Shown piece by piece: positions 1,099 to 27,596 of a stretch of DNA of 64,000 nt. The first letter of the stretch is position 1. Every line of letters starts with the position of its first letter. The stretch is from Clostridia bacterium (GTDB lineage: Bacteria > Bacillota > Clostridia > Christensenellales > QALW01), in the NCBI GenBank assembly GCA_017516345.1, contig JAFXDC010000026.1, positions 2,334 to 66,333 of the forward strand. Direction: 5' to 3'. Both the position numbers and the translations under genes were made by a program. A model generated the notes under the pieces. The model saw only the letters and a program-made list of their open reading frames with translations. It was not told the DNA's origin and did not search any database.

Positions 1099-1140
1099 GT
1101 TTCCTCCTTGATGCTTATGCATCTGATCTCTAACCACATT

Positions 1141-3874: not shown

Positions 3875-5053
3875 TTAAGCCTCGGTAATACCGGTGATCC
3901 TTGCCTGACCGCCGGGACGGGTGCACATAAGCTCGGCGTACTTGACAAGAGTTGCGCCAAATACAGGCTTGCCGGGGATCTGTCTTAAAATACCGCCGTT
4001 CTCACCCTCAAGCCATCTCCAGTCGCAAAGCTGATGAAGCTCAAAGTCACCGCTGGAGAGCAGATACATGGTTCCGTTGGGAACGAATCTGTCGGCTACG
4101 ATGGGCATGCCCGCATAGCTGATGGCCTTGTATCCGCCCTCAAGCTCGGTCACGTTTACGTTGCGCTTGCTGGCTTCAAGAGCGGCGGCATATGCGCGGC
4201 GTACACCGTAGGAGCAAAGCGCAATGTCCACCTTGCTGCCCGCATTCTCCTCAACAAAGTCAATGGCCTGCTGTATCTTTGCATCGGTTATGTCACCGGC
4301 ATTTGCATAGGTGTATGCCTTAAGCCAGGCATTGTCCTGCTTGGACAGGCCGTAAAGCTCTCCGCCGTCGGCAAAAATAGCCTCAAGACCGGTGATCTCG
4401 TTTCCCTTGCTTCCCTGCATAACCATAACGGAATTCTTGGAAGCGGTCACGGTACGGTCAAGATGAACGCTTGTGCCGCTTGCGGTCTTTTCAATTCCGG
4501 TAATGGTCACGCCGCTTACCGCGGGAGTGCCGTCGGAAATGGATGAGTAAATATCCACCACCATGCCTGCGGCAAGGTTGCGAGCGCTGTCCACGCCGAT
4601 CTTTTTTGCGTTTGATGCATCTGCACTAATGGTGCAGAGCTTGCCCGAGCCGTCACCGTAAAGCATACGGGAGAAGTTGAACTTTGCACTTCTTAAAAGA
4701 CCGTCCATCTCGGCGTTAAGCAGGTTTACAAAGGCACCTGCGGAGCTCTCACCGGCTCTTATCGCCTTGTCGCTTATCTGAATGGAGCCGTAAAGGTTCT
4801 TAAGCGTGCTTACGAACTGCGCGTAGTTGTTGCCTGTAGCACCGGGCAGATCTCCCGCCTCACTGCCCGCAGAAATGCCGCCGTTCACACCGTAGATGGC
4901 GGCCTTGCGTACCTCCTTGCCGTAAACACAGCTCTCGCTCTGCTTTATCATGGCATAAAAGGGATTGCTCTCCATGTTAAGCTGATGTGCCACCACATCA
5001 AGATAAAACGATTTTAATGCGTTTTCCGCATTGGTAATTGTTACTGTTGACAT
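3875..5053 (-). CDS. Phage major capsid protein
   Basis: 392 aa, directly after the scaffold gene. Strong RBS (CAAGGAGGAC). Synteny is terminase-portal-scaffold-capsid. Confidence 0.75.
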   Translation of the reverse strand: MSTVTITNAENALKSFYLDVVAHQLNMESNPFYAMIKQSESCVYGKEVRKAAIYGVNGGISAGSEAGDLPGATGNNYAQFVSTLKNLYGSIQISDKAIRAGESSAGAFVNLLNAEMDGLLRSAKFNFSRMLYGDGSGKLCTISADASNAKKIGVDSARNLAAGMVVDIYSSISDGTPAVSGVTITGIEKTASGTSVHLDRTVTASKNSVMVMQGSKGNEITGLEAIFADGGELYGLSKQDNAWLKAYTYANAGDITDAKIQQAIDFVEENAGSKVDIALCSYGVRRAYAAALEASKRNVNVTELEGGYKAISYAGMPIVADRFVPNGTMYLLSSGDFELHQLCDWRWLEGENGGILRQIPGKPVFGATLVKYAELMCTRPGGQARITGITEA

Positions 5054-5069
5054 TTTTTAGTCCTCCTTG

Positions 5070-5678
5070 TCATCTTTTGTATAATTCCCTTGTCATTTCA
5101 GCCGCATCCTCAAGGCTTGCGGCCTTGCTTCTTTCCCGCAGAGGGATATATCCCCCGCGCTTAAGCACGGGAGCACCCTGGGCGGATATCTCGGTCAGAT
5201 ACCTCATTACCACCCCGTCGTATATCCTTTGATCCTCCATGCACCTTGCAAGAAACTCCTCACTTTCAAGAAGCTCCTCGGGGGATACGTATCTGCGGTC
5301 AAGTATATCCATATACGCGGCTTTTAATTTTTGCTCGATGTCATCTCCGACCTCGGCAATGCTCCCCTCAAGCTCCGCCTTAATATCCGCCGCCTTGGGA
5401 TATCTGCGAATGAATTCCTCAAGCGCCTCACTGCGCCTTTGTGCCACCTGCTCAAGCTCACGCTCCCTTTGCTCCCTGAGCCTGAGCTCCTGAAGCTGAC
5501 CGTGCTCCCTTTTAAGCGCGGCAAGCTGTTGACTGCGTCTTGTGAATTCCGCCTCAAGGGCCTCGTATGCGCGGAGAAGCTGGTCGTTTGTCGCAAACTT
5601 CTGCGGCATTGCCTCCCCGCCCTTATCGGAGCCCACCTCGGGTTGTTCCGATATATTTTCTTTGTTATGCTCCTTCAT
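5070..5678 (-). CDS. Phage scaffolding protein
   Basis: 202 aa, highly charged E/R/L/Q-rich helical sequence between portal and capsid. Overlaps the portal stop by 14 nt. Confidence 0.65.
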   Translation of the reverse strand: MKEHNKENISEQPEVGSDKGGEAMPQKFATNDQLLRAYEALEAEFTRRSQQLAALKREHGQLQELRLREQRERELEQVAQRRSEALEEFIRRYPKAADIKAELEGSIAEVGDDIEQKLKAAYMDILDRRYVSPEELLESEEFLARCMEDQRIYDGVVMRYLTEISAQGAPVLKRGGYIPLRERSKAASLEDAAEMTRELYKR

Positions 5679-7458
5679 TATCTCGCGCCTCCAAATGCAT
5701 CATGTAGTGCTTTGTGATCTCCTCGGCTCTCTTTGAGCCCTCAGCCTTGAGTCTGCCAAACTCCTCGGTCATCATGTATCTGCCGTGCTCGGCAAGATGT
5801 ATATCGTGGTCATCCGCCACCCCGATCTGGGCAGGAGCAAGTCCCTCGTTCTCCCGCTGAGCCGCCTTGGTCTGCAGACTTGCCATGGAATCACAGCTCT
5901 CCCAATCCCCAAGCCCAAGCGCGGCAAATATCCTGCTCTTTTCATCTCTTTCCATGCCGCTGTTATTTGTAAACATTCCGCGTGCCATAAGGTCAAAGAG
6001 CATCTGTCGCCTCTGAGATACGTTCTGACTCATCTCGTTTTCGGTCTCGTGGATAACGTCGTCGCTGCTTAACTGGCTTCCCTTAAAATAAAGGGTGGCA
6101 AGACTGCCGTTATCCCCCGCTATCTGCATGAGTCTTGGCTGAGTTGCATACTGTCTGTAAAGCCTTATCCACATTTTAGCCATCTCCTTTGCCGCATCCC
6201 TTATGCTCTCGCTGGTCACGGCAAGTCGGGTGTTGTCCTGGTCGTTAAGAAGCGATAGCGCAACACCGCTCGTGGCGGCTCCGGAAAAGCTTCTTCGCAT
6301 CATCTCGCTTACCCCCGATACCATCTCAAACTCCTGAAGAAGCTGTATCTCCTCACGGGCAAACTCGTTGGGAAGCTGTCCCACCGGCATCATCTGAGGG
6401 GGATTGCTTCCCGCACGGTATACAAGTATCCGTCCCGGGCACAGGCCCTCCTGCTCAAGGCTTTGGGTGTCCACAGCACCCTCCTCCACCGCCACCACGC
6501 CAAAGGCGGCTCGGTTAAGGTATTCGTGCTTGCGGTTCTTTACCGCATTGTACGCCCTCTGCACGGGAATGCACCGCTCTATTACCGATATCCCAAAGAA
6601 CCCGGTCGCATCGGGCATGGCTACCTGGCGCACAAACGGAAGCTCACGCTTGCCGCCCTCACCGTTTTTGTAGGGAAGCTCACCCTCATATACAAGCTCA
6701 TCCCCCGCCACGATAAGCAGGCGCCCATTCTTAAACTCCACGTCGGGCATCTGATAATACTCCGATACCGTAGCGCAGTCCTCACCCTGCGAGCTTATCA
6801 TGCTGTTTAGCACTCTCCCGCCCGTGGGCTGTACCCTTACGCCGTAGAGCTGCTCTATCACGCTTACGGGCACAAGCTTTGAATGGATGATGCTTCTGCA
6901 TTCCCCCACGCTTCTGCTGCTGCAGCTGTCGGGAAATATCTCAAAGGGGGAGCACACCTCCACCGCAATATCCCCGCACTTGACTCCGCCGCTCTCCGCC
7001 TCGGGATCCCATATCACCTTGTAGAAGGCACTGCCGCAAAGCTCGCTCCATTGAGTAGCCTCCTTTATAAGCCCCGGCATGTTGAGCCTGTGGTATGCAC
7101 TGTGCAGTATGCTCCTGCAAAGAAGCGCGTTTTGTCTGTCCTCCTCGTCACTGCTTGCAGGTCGCACGCTCATTAACGGCCTTATCTGTCCAAGCCTTGA
7201 AAGCCTTGCCTCTATGATGGGGGCAATGTGGTTGAATACCTCCTGCTCCTGCCAATAATACTGCTTGGCGCAATCGTATATCTGACCCGAATAGGGCGCG
7301 ATATCGCAATATTGCTTGCCCTTCTCAAAGTTGATATTCAAGCGCCACTGAAGCTCGTAGGGCATGCGCTCGCTCGCCCTTCTTTCAAGCTCACCGTTTA
7401 CCATCTCGGCAAGCCCCTTTTTGCGCAGAGCCTCCGCCCTGCTCGTCTTGTCCTTCAT
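5665..7458 (-). CDS. Phage portal protein
   Basis: About 600 aa, immediately downstream of the large terminase. Start chosen at the ATG at 7458, preceded by AAAGAGG; the open frame extends to 7503. Confidence 0.75.
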   Translation of the reverse strand: MKDKTSRAEALRKKGLAEMVNGELERRASERMPYELQWRLNINFEKGKQYCDIAPYSGQIYDCAKQYYWQEQEVFNHIAPIIEARLSRLGQIRPLMSVRPASSDEEDRQNALLCRSILHSAYHRLNMPGLIKEATQWSELCGSAFYKVIWDPEAESGGVKCGDIAVEVCSPFEIFPDSCSSRSVGECRSIIHSKLVPVSVIEQLYGVRVQPTGGRVLNSMISSQGEDCATVSEYYQMPDVEFKNGRLLIVAGDELVYEGELPYKNGEGGKRELPFVRQVAMPDATGFFGISVIERCIPVQRAYNAVKNRKHEYLNRAAFGVVAVEEGAVDTQSLEQEGLCPGRILVYRAGSNPPQMMPVGQLPNEFAREEIQLLQEFEMVSGVSEMMRRSFSGAATSGVALSLLNDQDNTRLAVTSESIRDAAKEMAKMWIRLYRQYATQPRLMQIAGDNGSLATLYFKGSQLSSDDVIHETENEMSQNVSQRRQMLFDLMARGMFTNNSGMERDEKSRIFAALGLGDWESCDSMASLQTKAAQRENEGLAPAQIGVADDHDIHLAEHGRYMMTEEFGRLKAEGSKRAEEITKHYMMHLEARDNEGA

Positions 7459-7559
7459 CTGTTTACCTCTTTTCTGAATACTTTTTGCCATGTGTCTGAC
7501 CAAGGATCAACACTTGCACATATTCACATATCAGCATTTGTCCCTTTTTTACGCAGTTT

Positions 7560-8975
7560 TTAAAATCTTTTTCTTTTTCTTTGATAGATAAGTCTTTCCA
7601 GGTCCTTCTGCACCTCGTTTTTGGCCGCCTTGGGCAATACCGCACCCGACGGCCTTGATGCCACGAAATATCTCAGCTCGTCCAACGCATGATCGTCCTT
7701 TTTTATTGGCTCCTCACCGCTTCCGTAGCGATAGGTCTTAAACTCCCTTATAAGCTCACTGCAGCAATTAAAAATGTATAGCCTTGGCCTGTCGGGGTCA
7801 TTTGTCAGATATTGCTTTACAAGCTGTATGCCGCTTGGCACGTTCTTGTCCACCTTGGGATTGACCGCTATGCCCTGCTCGCTGAAGAGCTGAGCTACGC
7901 TCCTTGTCCCGGACAGAGTCCTTTGCAGAGCCGCCGAGTCTATAAGGGCGGCATATCTCCCCGCACTGTCCCTCTTCCAGGAAAGCTGTCGGCTTATCTG
8001 CTTTATCCTCTCGGAATGCCAAACACAGTCCTTCCCGCTTTGGAAATGCTCCGCAACCACGTATATGTTGCCGTCCCCGTCCACCGCATACCAATGCGCG
8101 CTTAACGGGTTTACAAATCCGGGATCAATGCTTATACAGCTCTGCCAATGCTCGGGAATATCAAAGGGCTCTATCACGTGCACCCTCTCGTCAAATTCGG
8201 GATAAACAAGTCCGTTCTTGGAGGCAAACTCACCGTACTGCCTGCTGCGTCTCTGCTCCTTGCTCAGCACCCTCTCCATCAGCTCAAGCTCCCCCTTATC
8301 AAGATAAGGGTTGTCCTGCCAGCTCATGGTCTGATGCCATACCTCGGGATCATCGGTGTTTAAGTATATCTGCTCGTGCACCCAGGTAAGTCCCATAAGC
8401 GGGGTCATGGTGCCCCATATGTCCCCCTTGCGGTCAAGCACCCTCATGCGGCACTCCTCGTATATCTCAAGGGGCGGCTCCTCATCAAACCATACCCAGT
8501 CAAGACTCGTGCCCTGAAAAACGCTCCGCCCCTGGTCACAGCTCTTAAAGCCTATCATGGACAGCCCTCCGTGCACGCTTCTTACCAATATAAAGTCGAT
8601 TATTCCCCCCTCGGGGTTATCCCTTCTGCCCTTCTTCATTACTATACTGTGTATCCACTCCTTGGGAAGATAGGACAGCACCTTTTTTTGCGCAACGTCT
8701 CGTTGCACCTCTCCCGTCAGACTCACCACCCACCCTTGAGTGGGGCCCTTGATCTCTCTGTAGGGGTGTATCCCCCGCGCAAACCATACCGCCTCCACCG
8801 CACCGCACTCGGTCTTGCCCGTACGGTTGCCACCGAATACCCATCGGTTGCGCGCACTGCAGCGGTGAAACTCCATCTGCTTTTTGTGCACCCTCTTGCG
8901 GTTGTAACCCGCCAGCTTAAAAAGCTCCCTATGCCTGGCCATTAAGGCCTTTTTCTCTTTATCAGTCAGACTCAT
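7560..8975 (-). CDS. terL: Phage terminase large subunit
   Basis: Walker A 'GGNRTGKTECG' and Walker B-like 'DWVWFDEEP', with a C-terminal nuclease-like region. Overlaps the upstream small gene. Confidence 0.9.
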   Translation of the reverse strand: MSLTDKEKKALMARHRELFKLAGYNRKRVHKKQMEFHRCSARNRWVFGGNRTGKTECGAVEAVWFARGIHPYREIKGPTQGWVVSLTGEVQRDVAQKKVLSYLPKEWIHSIVMKKGRRDNPEGGIIDFILVRSVHGGLSMIGFKSCDQGRSVFQGTSLDWVWFDEEPPLEIYEECRMRVLDRKGDIWGTMTPLMGLTWVHEQIYLNTDDPEVWHQTMSWQDNPYLDKGELELMERVLSKEQRRSRQYGEFASKNGLVYPEFDERVHVIEPFDIPEHWQSCISIDPGFVNPLSAHWYAVDGDGNIYVVAEHFQSGKDCVWHSERIKQISRQLSWKRDSAGRYAALIDSAALQRTLSGTRSVAQLFSEQGIAVNPKVDKNVPSGIQLVKQYLTNDPDRPRLYIFNCCSELIREFKTYRYGSGEEPIKKDDHALDELRYFVASRPSGAVLPKAAKNEVQKDLERLIYQRKRKRF

Positions 8976-10229: not shown

Positions 10230-10790
10230 TTATTTATTTTCTTGAGCTGTAAATACTCCGTCTCTCTGCTTTTGAGCTATTGTATTCACCGTGACAGAGC
10301 AGGCTTCAAAGCGCTTTTTGTTTATTATGTGCAAGATCCAGGGCGCAGTACAAAAGATAAACATAATAACGCTTCTTACGCCGCTTTTATAACGCTTTTG
10401 CGCGGGCTTGATGTCACTGTAGAGACAGCCGCGCACCTTGTTTATGCTAAAAACGTTTATAAGGCTTACCACTCCCACCGCAAGCAGCATGATGCTTTCT
10501 GCCAGAAAGGTGTAGGCCGCGTCCGAGGCGGTAGCTAGCAGCATGAAGGATAAGGGCAGCATCATAAGGGATGCTATAAGGCTGTAGGCAATACCGAAAA
10601 CAAGGGACAGAGTGCGCTCAATGGTAAGGTTTTTGTTGGTAAGGGAAAGGAATGCCTGCTCCTCGGCGCTTGTTTCCGCACTCGCAGTGGGGGCGCTAAA
10701 GCCCTGCTCTATTGAGGATCTCAGCGCGCCGCATTTAAGACAGAAGGAAGCCGAAGGACTTAATTCTTCACCGCAATTGTGACAATACAT
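10230..10790 (-). CDS. Zinc-ribbon domain membrane protein (paralogue 1)
   Basis: 'MYCHNCGEEL..CLKCGA' followed by hydrophobic segments. RBS AAAAGGAGAAAA. Confidence 0.8.
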   Translation of the reverse strand: MYCHNCGEELSPSASFCLKCGALRSSIEQGFSAPTASAETSAEEQAFLSLTNKNLTIERTLSLVFGIAYSLIASLMMLPLSFMLLATASDAAYTFLAESIMLLAVGVVSLINVFSINKVRGCLYSDIKPAQKRYKSGVRSVIMFIFCTAPWILHIINKKRFEACSVTVNTIAQKQRDGVFTAQENK

Positions 10791-10818
10791 AATTTTTTCT
10801 CCTTTTATTTTTCAATGA

Positions 10819-11337
10819 TTACAGTTTGTCGCCGTTAAGCAGCTGATCGGTCACAGCCTTGTTGCTCTTTAGCATTGCAAAGCCTATGATGCGCATCACC
10901 AAGGCGATCTCGTTTGTAATGGCACATAAAACAATGCTCCAGGTGCCCGTGCAGTAGCCAAGGGCAAGCTCGACATCGCTCTTTTGAGGCTCTTTGTTAA
11001 GCTGAATGCTTAACAGCATATTATAAAAAGCGTTGTGGCGTTTTTTCGTGATGAACAGCATTATAAGGGTCAAGGGAAGGGCAAGGAACACGGCAATGGC
11101 GTTTTCCGCAAACGAGGAAGGCAGATCAGGTGCCGTTAAAAGGGCAAGAAGCGCCAGAAGCCCCACAAGCAGTAAAAGCACTATTGAATAGATCTTAAAG
11201 ATGCGATATTCCCATTTGAGCAGGTTATATATCCTCTGCAAAAAGCTCACCCTTTCCTTAAAAGGGGTGGGGACGCCGCAGCTTGGGCAGGACTCATAAC
11301 TATTGTGCAGCTCTTCCCCGCAATTGTGACAATACAT
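10819..11337 (-). CDS. Zinc-ribbon domain membrane protein (paralogue 2)
   Basis: 'MYCHNCGEEL..CPSCG' followed by TM segments. RBS AAAGGAGATAAAA. Confidence 0.8.
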   Translation of the reverse strand: MYCHNCGEELHNSYESCPSCGVPTPFKERVSFLQRIYNLLKWEYRIFKIYSIVLLLLVGLLALLALLTAPDLPSSFAENAIAVFLALPLTLIMLFITKKRHNAFYNMLLSIQLNKEPQKSDVELALGYCTGTWSIVLCAITNEIALVMRIIGFAMLKSNKAVTDQLLNGDKL

Positions 11338-11376
11338 AATTTTTTATCTCCTTTTTATTCTTTATTTTGTGAGGAT

Positions 11377-11385
11377 ATTATAGCA
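11377..11385 (-). promoter_or_regulatory. Extended -10 (TGcTATAAT) upstream of paralogue 2
   Basis: The reverse complement of attatagca is TGCTATAAT, about 40 nt upstream of the ATG at 11337. Confidence 0.5.
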
Positions 11386-11459
11386 AGGTGCAAGACAAAA
11401 ATAAATAATAAACTCGGTAAAATAAAGGATGATATTTTGTATTTTGAGTAAAATAAGGC

Positions 11460-11999
11460 TTATTGCATGGAAATGATCTCGTCAACAAGCTGTTTGTTGG
11501 ATTTCATTCTTACAAAGTTGATTATGTAAAAAATAAGGGCGTAGTTGTTGAAAATGGCGGCAAATACTATTCTGCCGATGCTTTCAAGACGATTGGCGGT
11601 TGGCGCGAAATTCTTTTCCATATTGTTTAAGTGAGGGGTTATTTTTAAGGCAGTCACAAGGTCTACGAGGCCCAACCCGATGAAAAGTCCGCCGTAGAGA
11701 AATGCATAAACAAACATGATGGAGGATGTAATGGCGTCCACACCCTCGTGCTTGCCCAAAACCAAGAACACAAGAGTGAATATCGCGCCCGCAACAAAGT
11801 AAAGTATGCTACATATCTTCCAAAGATTGCGTTCCCAACGCAGAAGCTTTTTGGTGGTGGCAAGAAATTCGGTGGCTCTGCGTGAGGGCTGTGCCTGTAC
11901 GGTGGGGATGACCTCGGGAGTGCTTTGAAGCCTTGTGCCGCAATTTGCACAGAAGACTGCCTGATCGGCTTGGGCTGAGCCGCAATTGTGACAATACAT
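11460..11999 (-). CDS. Zinc-ribbon domain membrane protein (paralogue 3)
   Basis: 'MYCHNCGSAQADQAVFCANCGT' followed by TM segments. C-terminus is 'KSNKQLVDEIISMQ'. Confidence 0.8.
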   Translation of the reverse strand: MYCHNCGSAQADQAVFCANCGTRLQSTPEVIPTVQAQPSRRATEFLATTKKLLRWERNLWKICSILYFVAGAIFTLVFLVLGKHEGVDAITSSIMFVYAFLYGGLFIGLGLVDLVTALKITPHLNNMEKNFAPTANRLESIGRIVFAAIFNNYALIFYIINFVRMKSNKQLVDEIISMQ

Positions 12000-12037
12000 G
12001 GTTTTCGTCTCCTTTTTATTATTTATTTTGTGAGGAT

Positions 12038-12046
12038 ATTATAGCA
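12038..12046 (-). promoter_or_regulatory. Extended -10 (TGcTATAAT) upstream of paralogue 3
   Basis: Duplicate of the element at 11377-11385. Confidence 0.5.
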
Positions 12047-12120
12047 AGGTGCAGGACAAAAATAAATAATAAACTAAGTAAAATAAAAGGTGATATTTTG
12101 TATTTTGAGTAAAATAAGGC

Positions 12121-12684
12121 TTATTGCATGGAAATAATCTCGTCAACAAGCTGCTTGTCTGATTTGAGTCTGGTGAAGTTGATCAGGTAGAATATCACTG
12201 CGTAGCCGTTTAACATTATGGTGTAAACTATCCTTCCCACGCTGTCAAGACGCTTTGCGGTTGGCGCAAAATTCTTTTCCATATTGTTTAGGTGAGGCGT
12301 GATCCTGGCGGCGGTCACAAGGTTTACGATGCCTGTCGCCAAAAATACCGAGCTGTAAAGGAAGTATATCAGGTACACGAGACCGCTCATCGGGTCAAGC
12401 TCGGCACCCTCGGGGCCTGTGGGCGGAGTGCCTGAGCCAAGTATAATAAGAGAGATCAGCATTAAAAACCCACCGCAAACCGTCATTATTATACCGCCTA
12501 TCTTCCAAAGGTTGCGCTCCCAATGCAGAAGCTTTTTGGTGGTGGCAAGAAATTCGGTGGCTCTGCGTGAGGGCTGTGCCTGTACGGTGGGGATGACCTC
12601 GGGAGTGCTTTGAAGCTTTGTGCCGCAATTTGCACAGAAGACTGCCTGATCGGCTTGGGCTGAGCCGCAATTTGGACAAAACAT
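12121..12684 (-). CDS. Zinc-ribbon domain membrane protein (paralogue 4)
   Basis: 'MFCPNCGSAQADQAVFCANCGT' followed by TM segments. C-terminus is 'KSDKQLVDEIISMQ'. Confidence 0.8.
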   Translation of the reverse strand: MFCPNCGSAQADQAVFCANCGTKLQSTPEVIPTVQAQPSRRATEFLATTKKLLHWERNLWKIGGIIMTVCGGFLMLISLIILGSGTPPTGPEGAELDPMSGLVYLIYFLYSSVFLATGIVNLVTAARITPHLNNMEKNFAPTAKRLDSVGRIVYTIMLNGYAVIFYLINFTRLKSDKQLVDEIISMQ

Positions 12685-17947: not shown

Positions 17948-20689
17948 TTATCCTTTTCTGAACCTGAAGCTCTGCGGTCCATCACTGCTTGGCACGTTGT
18001 AGGTGTGCTGATAGCTCTGCGTGACCGCATCGTAATAGCATTGCCAATAGTCGTTGCCGTAAACCGATTGATCCACCTTGACCCATTTGCCCTCCACAAG
18101 CCTTTCAAGCACGTAGCCGCTGTAGCCCTCTGCACCCATGAAGGTAAGTGCAACGTGACCCGTGCCGCCCCTAAGGGTGATCTCCGCCTCGTCCTGCTCA
18201 AGCTCCACCGCTACCGGGTAAAGGCTCGTCACAGTGCCCTTTTGCGCGATGACCTCAAGCCTCTCGCCCCTTAAAAAATACATGGCAAGATTTTTTATGA
18301 ATTCATCACCCTCACCGGGAACGCCGCGAATGCCCTCGTCGGGACCGTAGTATCCGTTCAGGCCCTCACCTATATGGGTGGGCAGAGGAACAAACTGCAC
18401 CGTTCCCTCCACCGTGCTTCCCTTTTTGATGATGCTTCCCGCCTCTGCCGGCGCGCCGAGCTCCACCACCGCGCAGGGGATGTTGTATGCTCCGTATAAC
18501 GCCTTATTTACCTTAATGCTTACCGATGGCTTGTCATAATGCTTGCCGTTTATCAGGGAGGACCAGGAGAGAAGATGTATCATTCTTGCACCGGGCTCGC
18601 CGTATTGTTGCTCATACAAGGTACTGCACCTCTCAAGCACGAAAAGCCCCTCGCCCCCTATTTCTATGCGTTGTTGGGCATCTGCATCGATATAGCCCTC
18701 TCCTACGGTGCTGTAGTCTATATCCATGGTGCCGTTATAGCTCTTGCCTCCAAGGGTAAATGCGGCATCACCGTCCATATTGCCAAGGGTTATTTTAGAG
18801 AAGCTGGTATTGTAATCATCAGCGCCGAATGCAAAGAAGTAAAGTCTTGAAAACTCAACGTCCTTTAAAAAATCATATTTTATATTGTAGGTGGCTTTTG
18901 CCGCGTCGTTGGTGCGGGACATATTGACCTGCACCCTTATGCGTACCGCATCATCCTTGGTGATGCCGCTATATACCACCTCGTTTATGCACGGGCCCTG
19001 CTTTATAAACCGAGTTGTCAATTGCTTAAGGGGGACCTCCTTGCCGTTTTTGTCATACATCGCAAAGAAGTCCGAGCCCGATACACCGCTTGGCCAGTTG
19101 TATTTTTGACCCTCCGCCCACGAGCCGTAGCACAGCAGCGGCAGTACGTCGTTTATCGCCGCACCCGTTCCGTGCGCCTTTTCGATATCATAACAGAAGC
19201 TGTCGCTGAAGGAGCCTACCGTGCTTGTCTCCCATTGCTGATAATTTCCTCCCCATCCCGCAAGACAGAGCTGGGAATGACTGCAGGCAAAGACACCGCC
19301 CCATTTGGGATAGGCAACCGTTACCTCGTACGTTACCGTCTTGCCCGCGGGCACGTCAATGAGGGTGTAGCCGTGAAACCACGTTCCCGACCATATCCTC
19401 CTTGGATCGTTTCTTGCGGCATAGTTGCCGTTTTTATCGGTGGAATAGTTGTGCCAGTTTCGGCACATCTGCACGTAGTGACCCGTGGGCTCGCCGCTTT
19501 GCACGTCGCGGAGCATAACGCTCATGCCCTCCACCGCAAAGCTGCCCTCCTTTAAAAGCTGTACGGGCATTGTAATATCGGCATTTGTGGGATTGGTAAG
19601 GGTGATGGTCAGGCGGTCAAGCTCATCAAGCCTCTCCTCCTGTTGGAAATCGCTGTGGCGATAGGTGCTCATCGCGCTCATATCCACGGTAAGATATCCC
19701 TTGGTCATGTCAAGCACGGTCTTTTGCTCCTTACCCTCCTTGGGGGATATCTGCACCGCCTGAGCCTCAAGCTCACTCCCCGCCAGGTAGTTGACCGCAT
19801 CCTGACCGCTTGCATTTGCCGATGGGATCACTATAACGCTAAGCCCGTCCAGGTCGTTCTTTTTGATCTTTAGGGATCTTTTTATCCTGATGACGTTACC
19901 CTCAGCCTCAACCGTGGCATCCTTTGGCACCACAACCGAAAAACCGCTGCCATCCTTTTTTGCCACCGTGACGGCTCTTTCGGCGCGATACACCACGCCG
20001 TAATCCTCGGTCAGCTTAAATTCCATGCCCACACCAAGGTCGTTGCGCCTGTCATCGGGAGAGAATAAGCCTATCTCAAGGGCAAGATATCTGGGCATGG
20101 CGGATATCTCTACTCTGCCCACCACCGGATCAAGACCCTGAAACCTTATCTTCATTACGTCTATGCGGCTTATAAATCTGCCGGTCTCAAGTATTCTGGA
20201 GCTATAGCTTCCCGTGCCTATGGCGGCGGTTCCCGTATATGCGCACTCCTCGCCGTTTTGGTTTATTGCAAAATAGCTCGTGGTTATACCGTCAAGGGAT
20301 TCTATAAGATCATTGTCCGCAATTGCGGCCTGAGCCTGAGATATCTCCTCCTTTATCACCCCAAGCTTCATCAGCTTGCCGCTTACCGTGTTAAAGGCAA
20401 GCCCGTAATGGCCGGTCTGAATATTCATCTGCCATTTGCCGCCCTTGTTGAAGCCATCCCGCCACCAGGCAAGAGAGTAGTCCCGCACCTCCGAGCGCTG
20501 AATGACGTTGCCCGAGGCGTCAAACAAAAACTCCTTGCCGCTCGGTGCAGGCTCAAGGGGCGTGCCTGTCCCCACAGTCGACGAGGCGGTCGGGCGCACC
20601 TCCACGGATGCGTCGGGCGTACCCGTATCGCAGCCGCAGGAAAGCAAAAGAATAAATATCATAACTGTAATAAGATATCTTTTTAACAT
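17948..20689 (-). CDS. Large putative lipoprotein of unknown function (913 aa)
   Basis: Signal peptide with lipobox-like 'LLLSCGCD'. The ATG at 20689 lies 6 nt after GGGAGGA. No catalytic motif recognised. Confidence 0.7.
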   Translation of the reverse strand: MLKRYLITVMIFILLLSCGCDTGTPDASVEVRPTASSTVGTGTPLEPAPSGKEFLFDASGNVIQRSEVRDYSLAWWRDGFNKGGKWQMNIQTGHYGLAFNTVSGKLMKLGVIKEEISQAQAAIADNDLIESLDGITTSYFAINQNGEECAYTGTAAIGTGSYSSRILETGRFISRIDVMKIRFQGLDPVVGRVEISAMPRYLALEIGLFSPDDRRNDLGVGMEFKLTEDYGVVYRAERAVTVAKKDGSGFSVVVPKDATVEAEGNVIRIKRSLKIKKNDLDGLSVIVIPSANASGQDAVNYLAGSELEAQAVQISPKEGKEQKTVLDMTKGYLTVDMSAMSTYRHSDFQQEERLDELDRLTITLTNPTNADITMPVQLLKEGSFAVEGMSVMLRDVQSGEPTGHYVQMCRNWHNYSTDKNGNYAARNDPRRIWSGTWFHGYTLIDVPAGKTVTYEVTVAYPKWGGVFACSHSQLCLAGWGGNYQQWETSTVGSFSDSFCYDIEKAHGTGAAINDVLPLLCYGSWAEGQKYNWPSGVSGSDFFAMYDKNGKEVPLKQLTTRFIKQGPCINEVVYSGITKDDAVRIRVQVNMSRTNDAAKATYNIKYDFLKDVEFSRLYFFAFGADDYNTSFSKITLGNMDGDAAFTLGGKSYNGTMDIDYSTVGEGYIDADAQQRIEIGGEGLFVLERCSTLYEQQYGEPGARMIHLLSWSSLINGKHYDKPSVSIKVNKALYGAYNIPCAVVELGAPAEAGSIIKKGSTVEGTVQFVPLPTHIGEGLNGYYGPDEGIRGVPGEGDEFIKNLAMYFLRGERLEVIAQKGTVTSLYPVAVELEQDEAEITLRGGTGHVALTFMGAEGYSGYVLERLVEGKWVKVDQSVYGNDYWQCYYDAVTQSYQHTYNVPSSDGPQSFRFRKG

Positions 20690-20795
20690 GACCATCCTCC
20701 CGTATCTTGGGTATATCTTGATTATATCAAACCCCGTTCCAAGGATAAATACACAATACTAACTTTTTTACGCACAATATTAACCTCTTAAAAAA

Positions 20796-20829
20796 TAAAA
20801 AAATGGCTCCGAAAAACGAAGCCATCAAA
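20796..20829 (-). terminator. Terminator of the ferredoxin gene
   Basis: ATGGCTTCG-ttttt-CGGAGCCAT followed by T7 on the minus strand. Confidence 0.7.
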
Positions 20830-20855: not shown

Positions 20856-21026
20856 TTATGCCTGAGCAGGAGCATCTACGGGGCAAACGTCTGCGCAAGC
20901 GCCGCACTCGATGCAAGCGTCAGCGTCGATAACGTACTGACCGTCACCCTCAGCAATTGCATTTACAGGGCACTCACCCTCGCATGCGCCGCAGGAGATG
21001 CACTTATCGTCAATTACATATGCCAT
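20856..21026 (-). CDS. fdx: 2x[4Fe-4S] clostridial-type ferredoxin (56 aa; below the ORF-track cutoff)
   Basis: Hand translation gives MAYVIDDKCISCGACEGECPVNAIAEGDGQYVIDADACIECGACADVCPVDAPAQA*, with two CxxCxxCxxxCP motifs. RBS AAAGGAGGA. Confidence 0.9.
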   Translation of the reverse strand: MAYVIDDKCISCGACEGECPVNAIAEGDGQYVIDADACIECGACADVCPVDAPAQA

Positions 21027-21086: not shown

Positions 21087-21114
21087 ATTATAGCATAATA
21101 AATATATTTTGCAA
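21087..21114 (-). promoter_or_regulatory. Strong sigma-70-type promoter for ferredoxin
   Basis: On the minus strand: TTGCAA, 16 nt, TATAAT, with TGc at the extended -10 position. Confidence 0.55.
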
Positions 21115-21189
21115 ACAAAAAATATATTTATTTTTTAAAACCTTTGCTTTTGACGGCTTATAGAGCAGTTTTTCTTGAAAAAAGCCGTT

Positions 21190-23385
21190 TTACCACTCGT
21201 TTATTCGCTTTTTCATGCCCTGAATATCAAGCACGGAGCATGCGAAGCCCTTCTTTACCAGCTCGGGAGGCAAAAATTCGTCGTATTTGTCAAACAGCGG
21301 AAGCTCGTTTTGATAAATAAGCTCCATCGGATCAAGCTCCTTTGCCGCCTCAAGCTTTAGCGCCTCAAAAAACTCCTCACGGCTCGCCTTCATCTTAAAG
21401 ATCATAAAATACGGTCTTGACGATTCAAATCCGCTTATTCCAAGGCTTGCGCACTTAAGCTTTATAAATCGCTCAAGCGCAAGGAAGGAATAGGTTCCAA
21501 GCCACGGAAGCAAGCACCACATATCCCCGCCAAGATGCATCAGCGGGGTCTCCGTCATCCCCGAGCCCTTGGCACTCTGACGCGCCTGCCTCAGCCTCTC
21601 CGCCGCGCTTTTGCCAAGATAGGGGTATTCCTCACCCGATGCAAGCACTTGCTTTATCATAAGCAGCACCTCGGTGTGGATATCCCCCGGGCACAGTCCG
21701 AAGAAGGCGGGCACCTTGCCCTTTACCTCGGTGACGTATACCGAGCGCTTCTTGTGGTCTATCTCCTCAACAAGCCATACCTTGCCCGCTATTGCAAGCT
21801 TTTCCCCCGCAGGTGGCGGCTGTACCACGGTTCCAAGCTCCTGGGACTGACAGCGCACGGTATATTCCTCGTTATCCTTAAATACCGCGTAAAACTTAAA
21901 GGAGTTCACCTGCCGCTCCCCGTTAAGACCCACGATGAGTCCGCCCTCCTCGGTCTTGTGAAGCTGACCGGTGGCAAGCAGATGTCTGAGCAAGCACAGA
22001 TAATCCTCCTTGCTCACCCTCTCAAAGGGACTTAGCTTGAGCACGGTCGCCGCAAGCGCGGCGGGACGCAGCTCACCCGAGGAGGCAAGCACGCTCATGG
22101 TCTGATGATACAAAAGGCTGTACGGCAGACGCCCTCTTATCGGAGGCTCCACCCATCTTTTTTTAAGATAAAGCTCTATTAAGGCTATTGCCTGTAAAAG
22201 CTGCCACGGAACGGTCTGTGGAAGCATCGCCCTGGCCTCGGGCTTTTCCTCACGGATAACAAAATGCATCTCCTGAGGCTGGCCTCTTCTGCCCGTCCTT
22301 CCCATTCTCTGCAAAAATGAGGATACCGTAGCGGGAGCGTTTAGCTGAAACGCTCTCTCAAGCTTGCCGATATCTATTCCGAGCTCCAAAGTGGAGGTGG
22401 TAACGGTGGAGAGATATCTGTCCTCGTCCTTCATTATCTCCTCCGCGCTCTCCCTGAAGGATGCGGACAGATTGCCGTGATGTATCAAAAATCTGTCGGG
22501 CTCGCCGTTATATTCACAAAGCGACCTGAGGCTTGTCGTGACCCCCTCACACTCCTCGCGCGAGTTTACAAACACAAGACTCTTTTTGCCCCTTGTCTTG
22601 TCAAAGATATATCTGTACGCCCCATCTGCACCCTTGAGAGGGTCGCTCTCATCCTGCAGGGCAGGCATATTTACCTTGCTTTCATCATCCACAAAGAAAT
22701 GCTCCATGCTAAGGCGCCAGCGCATCCCGCTTGACTCTATCCTTGGAATGACCGTACGTCTGCCCGTTCCTCTGGAAAGCAGCTCCCCCGCCGCCTCGGG
22801 CTCGCCAAGGGTGGCGGAAAGTCCTATCCTTCGCGGATCCGCTCCGGCAAGAGCGCACAGCCTCTCAATAAGGCATATGGTCTGTCCGCCGCGGTCTCCC
22901 CGCAAAAGAGAGTGCACCTCGTCGATGACCACAAACCTCAGATCCCCAAACAGACGCGCAATATCCCCGTGTCTGTGCATAAGCATGGCCTCAAGGGATT
23001 CGGGAGTTATCTGAAGTATCCCCCGCGGCTTGCTTATCATCTTGCTCTTATGGCTCTGTGAAACGTCCCCGTGCCAATGCCATACCGGGATATCCGCCTC
23101 TCTGCAAAGGTCGTTAAGGCGCTCAAACTGGTCGTTTATAAGTGCCTTAAGGGGTGCAATATATATCGCCCCTATGCTCTTTGGCATCTGTTCGTTAAGC
23201 ACCGTTAATATCGGAAAGAACGCCGCCTCGGTCTTTCCCGATGCGGTGGAGGCGGCAAGCAAAAGATTCTCATCGGTGTCAAATATCACCTCGCCCGCCG
23301 CTACCTGAACTCCACGCAGGGACTCCCATCCGTTTTGATATATATGATCCTGTATAAACGGTGCATACCTGTCAAAAATACTCAT
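21190..23385 (-). CDS. sngC: SF2 DEVH-box helicase, Lhr-like (third gene of the TerB-ATPase-helicase triad; Shango SngC-like)
   Basis: Motif I 'ASTASGKTEAAF', motif II 'VVIDEVHS', motif III 'SATL', motif VI 'QRMGRTGRRG', and a long C-terminal extension. Starts 9 nt after the ATPase gene. Confidence 0.65.
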   Translation of the reverse strand: MSIFDRYAPFIQDHIYQNGWESLRGVQVAAGEVIFDTDENLLLAASTASGKTEAAFFPILTVLNEQMPKSIGAIYIAPLKALINDQFERLNDLCREADIPVWHWHGDVSQSHKSKMISKPRGILQITPESLEAMLMHRHGDIARLFGDLRFVVIDEVHSLLRGDRGGQTICLIERLCALAGADPRRIGLSATLGEPEAAGELLSRGTGRRTVIPRIESSGMRWRLSMEHFFVDDESKVNMPALQDESDPLKGADGAYRYIFDKTRGKKSLVFVNSREECEGVTTSLRSLCEYNGEPDRFLIHHGNLSASFRESAEEIMKDEDRYLSTVTTSTLELGIDIGKLERAFQLNAPATVSSFLQRMGRTGRRGQPQEMHFVIREEKPEARAMLPQTVPWQLLQAIALIELYLKKRWVEPPIRGRLPYSLLYHQTMSVLASSGELRPAALAATVLKLSPFERVSKEDYLCLLRHLLATGQLHKTEEGGLIVGLNGERQVNSFKFYAVFKDNEEYTVRCQSQELGTVVQPPPAGEKLAIAGKVWLVEEIDHKKRSVYVTEVKGKVPAFFGLCPGDIHTEVLLMIKQVLASGEEYPYLGKSAAERLRQARQSAKGSGMTETPLMHLGGDMWCLLPWLGTYSFLALERFIKLKCASLGISGFESSRPYFMIFKMKASREEFFEALKLEAAKELDPMELIYQNELPLFDKYDEFLPPELVKKGFACSVLDIQGMKKRINEW

Positions 23386-23394
23386 AATTCTCTC

Positions 23395-24702
23395 TTATAA
23401 AACAAATTCCGCAAATTCGTCCTGCTCGTCGTCTTGATCTGCCGAGGCAAACTCAAAGCCCTCCCCGAGCAGACCCTTTACCGAGGCGGTGGGGTTCTGG
23501 TGCAGGATATTCAAAAGCTCTATAAAATCCCTTATCACCTCACGCGGGGTGATATTTCTTTCCGCCCCTATCCTTCCAAGCTCTATCTTGATAAATGCCA
23601 CTATATCCTGACTGGTTACGTTGCTTTGGTATCCGAAGAGCTCGCAGTGTATCTCCTTGAGCTTCTCACAAAGCACGGTAAGCTCCTCTCCGTTTAAGGG
23701 GGAAAGCTTTATCACGGGGGCAAGCATATCCTTAACCTCATCACTGCCAAAGCGCCCCTGCTCAAGACGGGACCGTAGCGCCTCATAGCTGTATACGCCC
23801 CGTCTGGTGTCCTCTATGCATTGTGGGGTTCCGCCCATTATCACTCCAAGATAATGTGCCTTACCCTGCAGAGCATCGTTGTACATGGTGAGTATCTTCT
23901 CGTAATTATACTGCCTTGTAATGCTGTTGGGGATCTTATATATATTTACAAGCTCATCGATAAATATTATAAGACCGCTGTATCCCGCCATCTTAAGAAA
24001 GGCGGCAAACAGCTTCAAATATTCGTACCAGTCCTCATCTGTTATGATGATGTTGACCCCAAGCTCGCTCTTGGCCTCACTTTTGGTGGAATACTCACCC
24101 CTGAACCACTTTATCACCCTTGCACAAAGCTCGTCATCCCCATCCATATAGGCGTTATAATAAAGGGTCAAAAGGCGGGCAAAATCAAAGCCGTGCACCA
24201 TCTGGCTTAAGGAATTGACCGTTTTGTGGATCTCGGCGTTCATCAAGCGTCTGAACTCGGCACTCTCAGGCGCGGCATCGGCAGAGACCGCCACCCCGCT
24301 TTGCAGAGTGCTTATCCATTTTTCAAGCACCAGATTCAGTGCCCCGCCCTCGGGACGCATCCTTACCGACATGTTTTGTACAAGCTCCTTATAGGTGGCA
24401 AGACCCTGACCCTTGGTGCCCTGAAGCCTGCGCTCGGGAGACAGGTCGCAATCCACCACCGCGAAGCCGCGGTCCATAACGTAGGTGCGCACAGTCTGCA
24501 TCAAAAAGCTCTTTCCGCTTCCGTACTTGCCCACTATAAAGCGAAACGCCGCACCGCCGTCCGCCACGATGTCAACGTCGTGCAAAAGTGCCTCTATCTC
24601 GGTCCTTCTTCCCACAGTGATGTATTGCAGTCCCACTCTGGGCACAACTCCGCCCTTAAGTGAGTTTATTATTGCGCTTGCTATCCTTTTAGGTATCTTC
24701 AT
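23395..24702 (-). CDS. sngB: P-loop ATPase (DUF2791-like; Shango SngB-like)
   Basis: Walker A 'GKYGSGKSF' and Walker B 'LIIFIDELV'. The start overlaps the upstream stop (ATGA at 24699-24702). Confidence 0.65.
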   Translation of the reverse strand: MKIPKRIASAIINSLKGGVVPRVGLQYITVGRRTEIEALLHDVDIVADGGAAFRFIVGKYGSGKSFLMQTVRTYVMDRGFAVVDCDLSPERRLQGTKGQGLATYKELVQNMSVRMRPEGGALNLVLEKWISTLQSGVAVSADAAPESAEFRRLMNAEIHKTVNSLSQMVHGFDFARLLTLYYNAYMDGDDELCARVIKWFRGEYSTKSEAKSELGVNIIITDEDWYEYLKLFAAFLKMAGYSGLIIFIDELVNIYKIPNSITRQYNYEKILTMYNDALQGKAHYLGVIMGGTPQCIEDTRRGVYSYEALRSRLEQGRFGSDEVKDMLAPVIKLSPLNGEELTVLCEKLKEIHCELFGYQSNVTSQDIVAFIKIELGRIGAERNITPREVIRDFIELLNILHQNPTASVKGLLGEGFEFASADQDDEQDEFAEFVL

Positions 24703-26171
24703 CTCTCCACAATTCCTTTCAGATCATCAAAATAATCCTCTATAATGCTTCCGTCCGCATCAAGCACGGTGTCGCCAACAAGGTCAAAGAGCTTTTGGTT
24801 TATGCTCTCCGACACCACGCTCTGCATCACTGCTCTGCTCCTGAGCATTGCCCTTGGGTCACCGCCCTGAAGCAAGAGCCGTATATATTCAAGCTCGACA
24901 TCATCAAGCCCGTACTTATCATGACTGTTCTCCTGCAGGTTTTCCGCACCTTCGGGCTTGGTCTCATCCTCTATATCTCCATATGCACAATTGCACATAT
25001 CAGCATTATTATGATCATGTGCTTCATTTTCGAGCTCCCACGTATCCATCTCTTCGTGCTCGACCGTGAGCCGCTGTGCGACCACGTCGGCATCCTCCCG
25101 AATGCCGTCAAGGGCAGAAAGGTCTATTACCACTCTTTTCGTGGCCTCTCTGCGCCTCGCGGCGGCAATGCGTCTTAATCCATCCGTGTAGGCCTTCTCC
25201 ACCAAGCCCTGCCGCACCGCGTTAAGGGATGCGTTCTTAAGCTCGGGGCTTACGCCGTATTTCTTGCGCAAAAAATTATCTATTCCCTTTAAAAGCTCGG
25301 CTATTCTTCGGGCGCCGCTGCGGTATTCAAGAAGTCTTGTAAGATACCATCTCCCGTCGCGACAGATGTATCTTTTAAATAGATTTATCTCCACCGTACA
25401 GTCCTCGTGCTCCTGCGGCAGATACACCGCCCCCGCAAACATCTGGTAAGGCGCCTCGTAGCAGCTTCCGAGCAAGCGCATAAAAAAGCTTTCGCCCCCC
25501 ATGCTTTGGTAATGCTCGGATATATACCGATACGCAAGATATACCGTGTAGTCGGTCTCCTCGGGGTATTTTGTGTATATCTTGGATTTTTCTATCCCAT
25601 AGGAGCTGAGCGCGCAGAGGGCTTCCAGCACCTCGCGGGGAGAATGCTCCTCCGCCTTATAAAGCACCTCGGCATGCTTATATTGCGGCTCTTTATCATC
25701 ATTAATACCAAATCCGTTTAAAATTGCAAGATCATCCGTCCACACAGGCAGATATTTTGCCACCGCGGGGTGGTTTCCGTAAGCGTGCAGGAGCTCCTTT
25801 AGCCTTTGATATCTCTGTTGCGCGCTTCCCCCTATGCCGTTTATAAGCTCATAGATATATACGAAAACAAAGCCTGTACAGGTCTGCTCATATATTCCCT
25901 CACGCGCGGCGGCGCGCCAGGTAAAATATCCTCTGAGCTGTTGGGTCGTCATATCCTCATAAGTGGGATAATAGCACTGAAAATCCCCCTTGTAGGGCAA
26001 GAAATCGGTGTGATCCTGCATGAATCGAGCTTGACGAAGGAATATCTCCGTCCTTGTCCCTTCGACGGCAAGCTGACGCATCTGTCGGTATTTTGGAGGG
26101 GTCAGCATTATGCCTGAGGGGGATATTGCTTCATCCCTGTATACCTTTTGGGTTATTTGGTCGATATCCAC
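24699..26171 (-). CDS. sngA: TerB-N/TerB-C domain protein (Shango SngA-like)
   Basis: 'YPTYEDMTTQQLRGYFTWR' resembles the TerB-N signature. An acidic linker precedes a C-terminal 'LELEYIRLLL...INQKLFDLVGDTVLD..IIEDY' that is TerB-C-like. GTG start preceded by AAGGGAGG. Confidence 0.6.
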   Translation of the reverse strand: MDIDQITQKVYRDEAISPSGIMLTPPKYRQMRQLAVEGTRTEIFLRQARFMQDHTDFLPYKGDFQCYYPTYEDMTTQQLRGYFTWRAAAREGIYEQTCTGFVFVYIYELINGIGGSAQQRYQRLKELLHAYGNHPAVAKYLPVWTDDLAILNGFGINDDKEPQYKHAEVLYKAEEHSPREVLEALCALSSYGIEKSKIYTKYPEETDYTVYLAYRYISEHYQSMGGESFFMRLLGSCYEAPYQMFAGAVYLPQEHEDCTVEINLFKRYICRDGRWYLTRLLEYRSGARRIAELLKGIDNFLRKKYGVSPELKNASLNAVRQGLVEKAYTDGLRRIAAARRREATKRVVIDLSALDGIREDADVVAQRLTVEHEEMDTWELENEAHDHNNADMCNCAYGDIEDETKPEGAENLQENSHDKYGLDDVELEYIRLLLQGGDPRAMLRSRAVMQSVVSESINQKLFDLVGDTVLDADGSIIEDYFDDLKGIVER

Positions 26172-26309
26172 CCCGGCCGCCTCCCTTGCTTTTATATTTC
26201 GGGTATCAAATTATTATATCATATTCATTTTAATATTACAATAATTATTATAAAAAAATCATTTTTTCTTTTATCTGTTGTTTTACCTCTCAACAATAGG
26301 GCGGCGCCG

Positions 26310-26348
26310 CGCGACTTCCGCCGTCGCTCCGCTCCCCTTCCGCCGCGG
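26310..26348 (+). repeat. GC-rich dispersed repeat, copy B
   Basis: CGCGACTTCCGCCGTCGCTCCGCTCCCCTTCCGCCGCGG. One substitution and a TG/C indel relative to 10093-10132. Confidence 0.6.
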
Positions 26349-26420
26349 CACTCGCCCATCAGCGAAGGTGCGTTTTTCGTCTTTTTCTTAGTAATTGATG
26401 TTTTTTTCTCTGTTATTCAT

Positions 26421-26493: not shown

Positions 26494-27222
26494 TTATTCA
26501 GCCTTCTTCTTTTTGGAAGCAAGAACCACTACTACGACCACAACGATCACAACAACTGCGCCGATCGCAGCCCAAAGGATCCAACCGTTGTTAGCGGGAG
26601 CGGGATCATCGGGGGTATCGGTGGGCTCTGTCGACTCAATAGGATCGGCGGGAGCATCGGTAGTAGCCTGAGTGGGTGCCTCGGTAGAGGGAGCCTCGGT
26701 TACAGGGGGCTCGGTCTCGGTGGAGCCTGCGCCGTAAGCGGTCTCGGTGAAGGTGAAGGTGTAGGGCTTGGAATAGTAGTACCATTCTGCACCGTTGCAG
26801 CATCCGAAGTACATGTTATAGGTCTTACCGGTCTCAAAGAGGAATACGGACTCCGCATCGTCAAACACAGGTCCTATCCAGCGCTCTGTAGCAAGGAACT
26901 CACCGTCTGTAGCGGTCTTGTAGAGCCTGGCATCGGCGCACTCACCTGCAAGCAGAGCGTCAAACAGAGCAGCTCCCTCTGCGGGCTCGGTGCCTGCTTC
27001 AAACATCCAAATGTCTACCCAAAGCAGATCGGTACCGTAGGGGTTGTTAGTTGTTGGGTATCTCTCGGGGAATTCGTAAGAGACGAAAACGTAACCGTCG
27101 GAATACTGCTCAAGCTCAACTATGTAATCATAATCAACAACGTTGGCTGCGGCAGATGCGCTGATGGCAAAAACACTGCACATCATGATTGCGGCAAAAA
27201 GGATTGCCATAAACTTTTTCAT
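26494..27222 (-). CDS. Secreted protein with a Thr/Pro-rich linker and C-terminal membrane anchor, unknown function
   Basis: Signal peptide 'MKKFMAILFAAIMMCSVFAISASA', a TEPPVTEAPSTEAPT linker, then 'VVVIVVVVVVVLASKKKK'. The ATG at 27222 follows GGAGG. Confidence 0.7.
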   Translation of the reverse strand: MKKFMAILFAAIMMCSVFAISASAAANVVDYDYIVELEQYSDGYVFVSYEFPERYPTTNNPYGTDLLWVDIWMFEAGTEPAEGAALFDALLAGECADARLYKTATDGEFLATERWIGPVFDDAESVFLFETGKTYNMYFGCCNGAEWYYYSKPYTFTFTETAYGAGSTETEPPVTEAPSTEAPTQATTDAPADPIESTEPTDTPDDPAPANNGWILWAAIGAVVVIVVVVVVVLASKKKKAE

Positions 27223-27596
27223 GAAAAATACCTCCAATTATTATTTTGGTGCTTATATTATACAACACCGAAAACCCATTGTAAATATCCTATTCTAACT
27301 TTTTTTAATGATTTTCATTACCAAAACTAACATTTGGGTATGTTTTTTTCACAAAACTCAAAATTTTTTTCGTTTCCAACCTTTTTTCAATATATAAAAA
27401 AATCTGCTCAACAGCCCAATATCAACCTATGCTACCGCTCTTGAAATGCTACACCTCACGGTCACGGCTCGCCTTGATCCATCATCCTGCTCCTTGGCAC
27501 GCACGCTTGTTGCTTCACTTACCCCTCACACAGCAGCGCCCCAAAAAATTAATCAAAAAAAATATCAAAAAAAGCCCTCAATAACGCTATAATTAT

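Follow-up and report, generated by a model that had tools for sequence, protein, structure and literature searches.

The window analysed here is a stretch of 64,000 nucleotides (nt) from contig JAFXDC010000026.1 (assembly GCA_017516345.1), part of a metagenome-assembled genome (MAG) of an uncultured Clostridia bacterium from gut/rumen metagenomes. It carries a chromosomal operon of three genes that is, judged by sequence, almost certainly an intact copy of the anti-phage system Shango (SngABC). Reading of the open reading frames (ORFs) placed all three genes in the same direction on the minus strand, in the order sngA-sngB-sngC, with the following features:

24699..26171, minus strand, sngA, 490 amino acids (aa), GTG start
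23395..24702, minus strand, sngB, 435 aa
21190..23385, minus strand, sngC, 731 aa
26180..26187, minus strand, ribosome-binding site AAGGGAGG, 8 nt before the sngA GTG at 26171, read from the sequence
26213..26241, minus strand, probable sigma-A promoter of the operon (TTGTAA, 17 nt, TATAAT, extended -10 TG)

Organization of the operon

The stop codon of sngA and the start codon of sngB overlap as ATGA (24702..24699), and the spacer between sngB and sngC measures only 9 nt (GAGAGAATT, 23394..23386). This tight packing of co-directional genes, headed by a 490-aa gene with a GTG start behind AAGGGAGG, is what the original prediction, made from the DNA letters, had described, and every one of these details can be read in the sequence. 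In a consensus scan, the operon promoter had 10 of 12 consensus matches in addition to the TG, and its -35 and TGATATAAT boxes are unchanged in three diverged relatives of the locus (L088, L091, and L092; see below) despite the drift of the coding regions. Scans of the window for RNA elements returned no Rfam or tRNA match.

The three proteins

SngA was matched by the Pfam families TerB_N (6.7e-27, residues 30-199) and TerB_C (8.9e-14, residues 338-484) and by the PADLOC SngA model (2.2e-65), with residues 22-487 aligning to profile positions 65-526 of 528; the segment YPTYEDMTTQQLRGYFTWR is present in its translation. TerB_N and TerB_C are joined by an alpha/beta region that has no annotation and by a disordered, acidic linker (about residues 372-417). 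The linker is acidic in every homologue, with a net charge of -4 to -15 and a length of 17-91 aa; the earlier description of the first gene as TerB-N/TerB-C-like with an acidic linker is borne out. The TerB core domain, which we take to be Pfam PF05099, was found neither in SngA of the window nor in its 47 homologues, even at E values of up to 1. No hydrophobic segment long enough to span a membrane is present in SngA, and the protein is read as soluble. Its AlphaFold2 (AF2) model has a predicted local distance difference test (pLDDT) score of 84, with values below 50 in the linker (372-417). A Foldseek comparison of this confident model with the PDB and with viral predicted structures gave nothing at E <0.08, and since no significant relative emerged the fold offers no functional clue. 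Searches of PDB sequences with SngA and SngB gave nothing usable.

SngB belongs to the Pfam family BrxC_BrxD (PF10923, formerly DUF2791; 1.4e-166), and both its Walker A motif GKYGSGKSF (K64) and its Walker B motif IIFIDELV (D249/E250) are intact, in agreement with the proposal of a DUF2791-like ATPase. K64 and D249/E250 do not vary among 48 systems. The PADLOC SngB model matched over its full length at 7e-186 (617 bits) versus 1.2e-50 (171 bits) for BrxD, and the NCBIfam BrxD equivalog scored 172 bits, which is under its cut-off of 350. These profiles place SngB, as a stand-alone protein, among the BrxD-type AAA+ ATPases. BrxD itself has been classed as an ORC/Cdc6-like AAA+ protein that forms a tight dyad with BrxHI, and a role in loading or activating the helicase was proposed in 2026 (PMC12839542). 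Relatives of SngB are present on 696 plasmid records, and no match was obtained in a phage collection.

SngC was recognised by Pfam DEAD (2.1e-26) and Helicase_C (9.7e-16). The PADLOC SngC model matched at 2.6e-265 (881 bits), with residues 3-726 on profile positions 5-715 of 720, and the BrxHI model matched over the full length at 1.3e-128 (428 bits). The motifs GKT (50-52), DEVH (155-158), SAT (190-192), and QRMGRTGRRG (359-368) are all intact; motifs I, II, III, and VI are invariant in the 48 systems, and the C-terminal part of about 350 aa also holds many invariant positions. In this C-terminal part no nuclease domain could be recognised, and neither Pfam DEAD_assoc nor DUF1998 was detected in the protein. 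The closest PDB sequences are MrfA/YprA and mycobacterial Lhr, and the best Foldseek match of the SngC model, which is of low confidence, is Lhr-core 5v9x (E 1.9e-17). The third gene had been proposed to carry all SF2 (superfamily 2) helicase motifs and an Lhr-like C-terminal extension. Both parts hold, the latter on the strength of the full-length BrxHI match and the Lhr-core fold match, because the anticipated match to DEAD_assoc did not materialize. SngC is thus assigned by sequence to the SF2 DEVH helicases, in the Lhr/BrxHI clade; in a published phylogeny SngC, BrxHI, DruE, and DpdJ form one defence-associated SF2 clade (PMC12278908). An assignment as a genuine Lhr-type or ligase-associated DEXH helicase was considered and rejected, as the corresponding NCBIfam models remained far under their cut-offs (TIGR04121, 192 bits against 850; PRK13767, 162 against 849) and DEAD_assoc is absent, so that only the overall fold is Lhr-core-like.

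The three proteins differ strongly in their rate of change. Over the 48 systems the mean pairwise identity is 38% for SngA, 73% for SngB, and 75% for SngC, and the ratio of nonsynonymous to synonymous substitution rates (dN/dS) relative to the close relative L088 is 0.38 for sngA, 0.07 for sngB, and 0.015 for sngC. Purifying selection thus acts on all three genes, and the constraint is by far the weakest on SngA. What is conserved in SngA is an aromatic and arginine-rich core (PTY..LRGYFTWR..R, YIYE, W144, W275, R302, IR358, N458, and D467). From these rates we infer that SngA, by far the fastest-evolving part of the system, may be the sensor or regulatory subunit. The broader picture is that of a TerB-N/C subunit that diversifies beside an ATPase-helicase pair under strong conservation across phyla.

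Conservation of the triad as a unit

When species-representative genomes were scanned with an SngA profile, at least 596 relatives came up, and co-conservation was counted in the best 80 loci. The order A-B-C on one strand was found in 74 of them, and the remaining 6 end at a contig edge before the missing gene; the co-conservation of the triad as a block, which had been predicted, consequently holds wherever the contig is long enough. The 4-nt overlap between the first two genes recurs in 29 of 47 complete loci, and a TerB-N/C partner gene accompanies the pair in all 74 complete loci. Clustering of neighbouring ORFs in these 74 loci revealed no recurrent fourth gene beside the triad apart from local synteny in one genus. 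Pairwise divergences of SngA, SngB, and SngC are correlated (r 0.77-0.87). These comparisons show joint inheritance and joint divergence of the three genes as one unit.

Only rarely is anything inserted between sngB and sngC, and what is found there (parts of ABC transporters, a dockerin protein, DUF389) is unrelated cargo. In two Collinsella loci (L042:10870-16822 and L065:10894-16954), a 6-kb block with ABC-transporter-like genes and a methyltransferase parts sngB from sngC, which shows that the two genes can be separated with neither ORF obviously lost.

The triad occurs in many Oscillospiraceae and Ruminococcaceae, as well as in Lachnospiraceae, Selenomonas, Collinsella, Eggerthellaceae, Victivallis, Desulfovibrio, and others. 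Its family has a patchy distribution over the phyla, with about 70% identity, and plasmids carry it too. One Shango-like triad (L086) is annotated on the 344-kb Clostridium estertheticum plasmid pCF002-344 (NZ_CP086238.1 273087-278262), where it directly follows a relaxase gene; a gene for an 848-aa ABC-type ATPase begins 18 nt downstream and is followed by IS110 transposase genes.

Identity as Shango and relation to known systems

The window operon shares with the validated Shango system the same three families, order, orientation, and domain content (TerB-like protein, ATPase, and DEAD/DEAH helicase). Each of its proteins has its best match, of near full length, to the corresponding PADLOC model, and the scores lie far above those of BrxD and BrxHI, which confirms the system name that the original prediction had given. 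Two differences from the validated system are that the copy in the window occupies a fixed syntenic site between core genes instead of a variable defence hotspot and that, at the N terminus, its SngA falls about 40 residues short of the profile; its host, moreover, is an uncultured member of the Clostridia. Protection by Shango was demonstrated in Escherichia coli (Millman et al. 2022) and in Pseudomonas aeruginosa PA14 (Johnson et al. 2022/23), and its mechanism is still called unknown in the literature of 2025-2026, so that the status given in the original prediction, a validated system of unknown mechanism, agrees with published work. By analogy with these homologues, a defence function in the source host is very probable.

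The statement that there is no characterised example from Clostridia stands. DefenseFinder and PADLOC reports of Shango exist, however, for rumen MAGs and Clostridium perfringens, to which the C. estertheticum plasmid can be added. Shango is not rare in Clostridia, and the copy in the window is a further member of a catalogued system. Since standard tools find it, this copy alone adds little.

The next relative is the BrxD-BrxHI pair of BREX type 2. SngB and SngC are homologous to it over their full lengths, and the two genes are tightly linked in both systems; BrxHI is described as an SF2 helicase with a winged helix-turn-helix, a beta-barrel, and an Lhr-like C-terminal domain (PMC12839542). 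In contrast to BREX type 2, no methyltransferase, PglZ, PglW, or BrxC was found among the other 48 ORFs of the window, and the partner of SngB is a TerB-N/TerB-C protein instead. The bacterial 3'-to-5' SF2 helicases Lhr-core and MrfA (YprA) are the best solved neighbours of SngC in both sequence and fold, and the match to Lhr-core spans the helicase core and the C-terminal region; however, they share only about 20% identity with SngC, and their genomic partners differ.

For SngA, the candidates for comparison are BnzA of Bunzi and DinB of Dionysus, which have been grouped with it as 'TerB' defence proteins with a suspected role in surveillance. SngA and its 47 homologues differ in having TerB_N and TerB_C without the TerB core, and SngA of the window lacks a transmembrane segment; for these two reasons the idea of membrane surveillance has no direct sequence support here. 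An assignment to a Ter (tellurite-resistance) stress cluster was also rejected: the TerB core was not found, and the neighbours are dehydrogenase, ferredoxin, and MurA genes.

Chromosomal setting and positional alleles

The operon is located between a ferredoxin gene and a secreted-protein gene, as had been noted originally. The features at its borders are as follows:

20802..20826, minus strand, first recognisable intrinsic terminator 3' of the operon, after the ferredoxin gene (terminator scan)
20856..21026, minus strand, ferredoxin of 56 aa with 2x[4Fe-4S] and its own promoter
21115..21087, minus strand, ferredoxin promoter (promoter scan)
26494..27237, secreted protein with signal peptide and C-terminal anchor

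The terminator scan revealed no terminator-like site between the sngC stop codon and the ferredoxin promoter, and any read-through from sngC would stop at the terminator at 20802..20826. The flanks are made up of core genes or genes of unknown function, namely, those for the E1/E3/E2 components of a 2-oxoacid dehydrogenase, the anchored secreted protein, the ferredoxin, a putative lipoprotein of 915 aa, MurA, and a GH32 enzyme. No integrase or transposase was found in the immediate flanks, as the earlier reading had it; the Pfam view of the whole window covered the top 25 of its 71 families. Genes for a phage terminase, portal, and capsid lie at 3875..8975, and their measured distance of 12.2 kb from sngC corresponds to the approximately 12 kb given before. 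When the other 48 ORFs of the window were compared with PADLOC, the only dedicated defence match was a dGTPase-like gene about 30 kb away; an ABC-F protein gave matches to generic ATPase models only. Because the neighbours are of core or unknown function, the phage genes are 12.2 kb distant, and the only dedicated defence match is about 30 kb away, the Shango locus is not part of a defence island.

The same contig type is present in several gut/rumen metagenomes, and the protein records of the source carry generic names (MBR3750601 and MBR3750603). All contigs that have an identical ferredoxin and enough upstream sequence possess Shango directly upstream of it, among them two with a diverged version. 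Compared with the window, the identities are:

L088: SngA 97.6%, SngB 99.5%, SngC 99.9%
L091: SngA 65%, SngB 91%, SngC 88%; 915-aa neighbour 65%
L092: SngA 40%, SngB 81%, SngC 71%; E2 87%

Relative to L088, synonymous divergence is 0.03-0.04 for the Shango genes and 0.03-0.07 for the flanks, and because the two match, vertical co-inheritance fits. The Shango genes of L092 are more diverged than its E2 gene, and a replacement at the same site is possible in that lineage.

Possible mode of action and alternative explanations

An intact chromosomal Shango anti-phage operon is highly likely to be the explanation of the locus as a whole. The proposed mode of action, taken as a complete model of sensor, loader, and translocase, is possible and put forward tentatively. 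In this model, SngA, a soluble TerB-N/TerB-C protein with an acidic disordered linker, would recognise a phage cue and then relieve the inhibition of SngB or activate this ORC/Cdc6-type AAA+ ATPase. SngB would in turn load or switch on SngC, which would act as a 3'-to-5' SF2 translocase of the Lhr/BrxHI type on phage nucleic acid, either single-stranded DNA or RNA:DNA hybrids. Driven by ATP, SngC would then unwind its substrate or strip proteins and so stop phage replication, and no dedicated nuclease would be involved. A more specific version, which is rather doubtful, holds that SngA is a hypervariable specificity determinant recognising phage factors and that its acidic linker is a nucleic-acid mimic keeping the SngB/SngC motor off until it is displaced by a phage cue. 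If this version were true, the positional alleles, with SngA at 97%, 65%, and 40% identity, a conserved promoter, and an identical ferredoxin adjoining, would provide a natural series for mapping Shango sensing. The locus may be of use as a compact and intact Gram-positive Shango with diverged alleles at one site, which could be swapped to find the specificity subunit.

Several points weigh against this interpretation. The protection data come from homologues of E. coli and P. aeruginosa and not from a Clostridial Shango, and the published protection is modest (10-100 fold). Positions 1-64 of the PADLOC profile for SngA have no match in the protein of the window, the fold of SngA has no solved relative, its role as a sensor is based on evolutionary rate only, and the gene-wide dN/dS of sngA is below 1. 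The AF2 model of SngC reached a pLDDT of 61, and only its C-terminal 160 residues are confident, which makes the match to the Lhr fold indicative and not firm; the poor quality of this model is attributed to the available homologues all being about 70% identical. No effector domain, such as a nuclease, was recognised, and for this reason the blocking or killing step is a guess. Finally, no defence island and no mobility genes were found, and the occupation of one fixed site in the lineage is atypical for defence cargo.

The lack of a recognisable nuclease or other selective effector would also suit a Shango that works by abortive infection, in which the SngB and SngC motors, once triggered, would act on host nucleic acid or burn ATP and, with no selective action on phage nucleic acid, bring the infected cell to growth arrest or death. 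ATPases account for two thirds of the system, and the combination reported for P. aeruginosa of a modest plaque reduction with strong protection in liquid culture is compatible with an effect at the population level. However, nothing in the sequence speaks of toxicity, and to our knowledge Lhr-type helicases are not known as toxins; abortive infection is accordingly regarded as unlikely.

It is very unlikely that the operon is a housekeeping or stress module for DNA processing, serving in repair or under replication stress instead of in immunity. Triads associated with Ter genes were reportedly read as a DNA-processing complex in a comparative-genomics study of 2012. The position of the locus among core genes (2-oxoacid dehydrogenase, ferredoxin, and MurA) with no mobility genes found, its presence at the same site in relatives with an E2 identity of only 87%, and the fact that the closest solved relatives of SngC are the repair helicases MrfA and Lhr would all fit such a role. 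Yet SngB and SngC score by far best on the Shango models, the Lhr-like and ligase-associated models stay far under their cut-offs (192 versus 850 bits), and the operon has no ligase, exonuclease, or other repair partner next to it. The patchy spread across phyla at about 70% identity and the occurrence on plasmids correspond to the pattern of mobile defence, and members of the family do protect against phage.

A degenerate fragment of type 2 BREX (Pgl), to which the matches of SngB to BrxD (1.2e-50) and of SngC to BrxHI (1.3e-128) and the name of the Pfam family BrxC_BrxD might point, is practically excluded, as the Sng models give 3-4 times higher bit scores for SngB (617 versus 171) and about 2 times higher for SngC (881 versus 428), the NCBIfam BrxD model stays at 172 bits against a cut-off of 350, PglX, PglZ, PglW, and BrxC are unmatched in the other 48 ORFs of the window, and a TerB-N/C protein is the partner in 74 of 74 complete loci.

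Other features of the window

Upstream of the operon, about 100 nt of GC-rich sequence (GCGAGTGCCGCGGCGGAAGGGGAGCGGAGCGACGGCGGAAGTCGCGCGGCGCCGCC, about 26290..26390, minus strand) is embedded in an AT-rich spacer that separates the sngA promoter from the terminator of the secreted-protein gene. One gene caller predicted a 63-aa ORF in it. The stretch has no Rfam match and is present in the window and in L088; it is absent from L091 and L092 and hence is not a conserved leader element. On the other side, the 915-aa protein (17948..20695, minus strand) has a lipoprotein-type signal (…LLLSCGCD…) and no Pfam domain, and it diverges fast (65% identity in L091) beside the 100%-identical ferredoxin.

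The phage module, either a complete prophage or a remnant, runs past the start of the window and comprises, on the minus strand, genes for a LysM protein (217..1137), a capsid-like protein (3875..5053), a portal (5665..7503), and the terminase large subunit (7560..8975). The portal is P22/SU10-like, the major capsid protein is SU10-like, and the terminase is of the T4 type. Between the phage genes and the GH32 gene, four tandem ORFs of 186, 172, 179, and 187 aa (10230..12684, minus strand) lie in a stretch of low GC content (0.43); three of the four have an N-terminal zinc-ribbon, and they may represent a small expanded family.

The dGTPase-like HD-domain protein of 394 aa (53098..54282, plus strand, TTG start) matched the PADLOC dGTPase model over the full profile at 2.7e-47, and it could be either an anti-phage dGTPase or a housekeeping Dgt-like enzyme.

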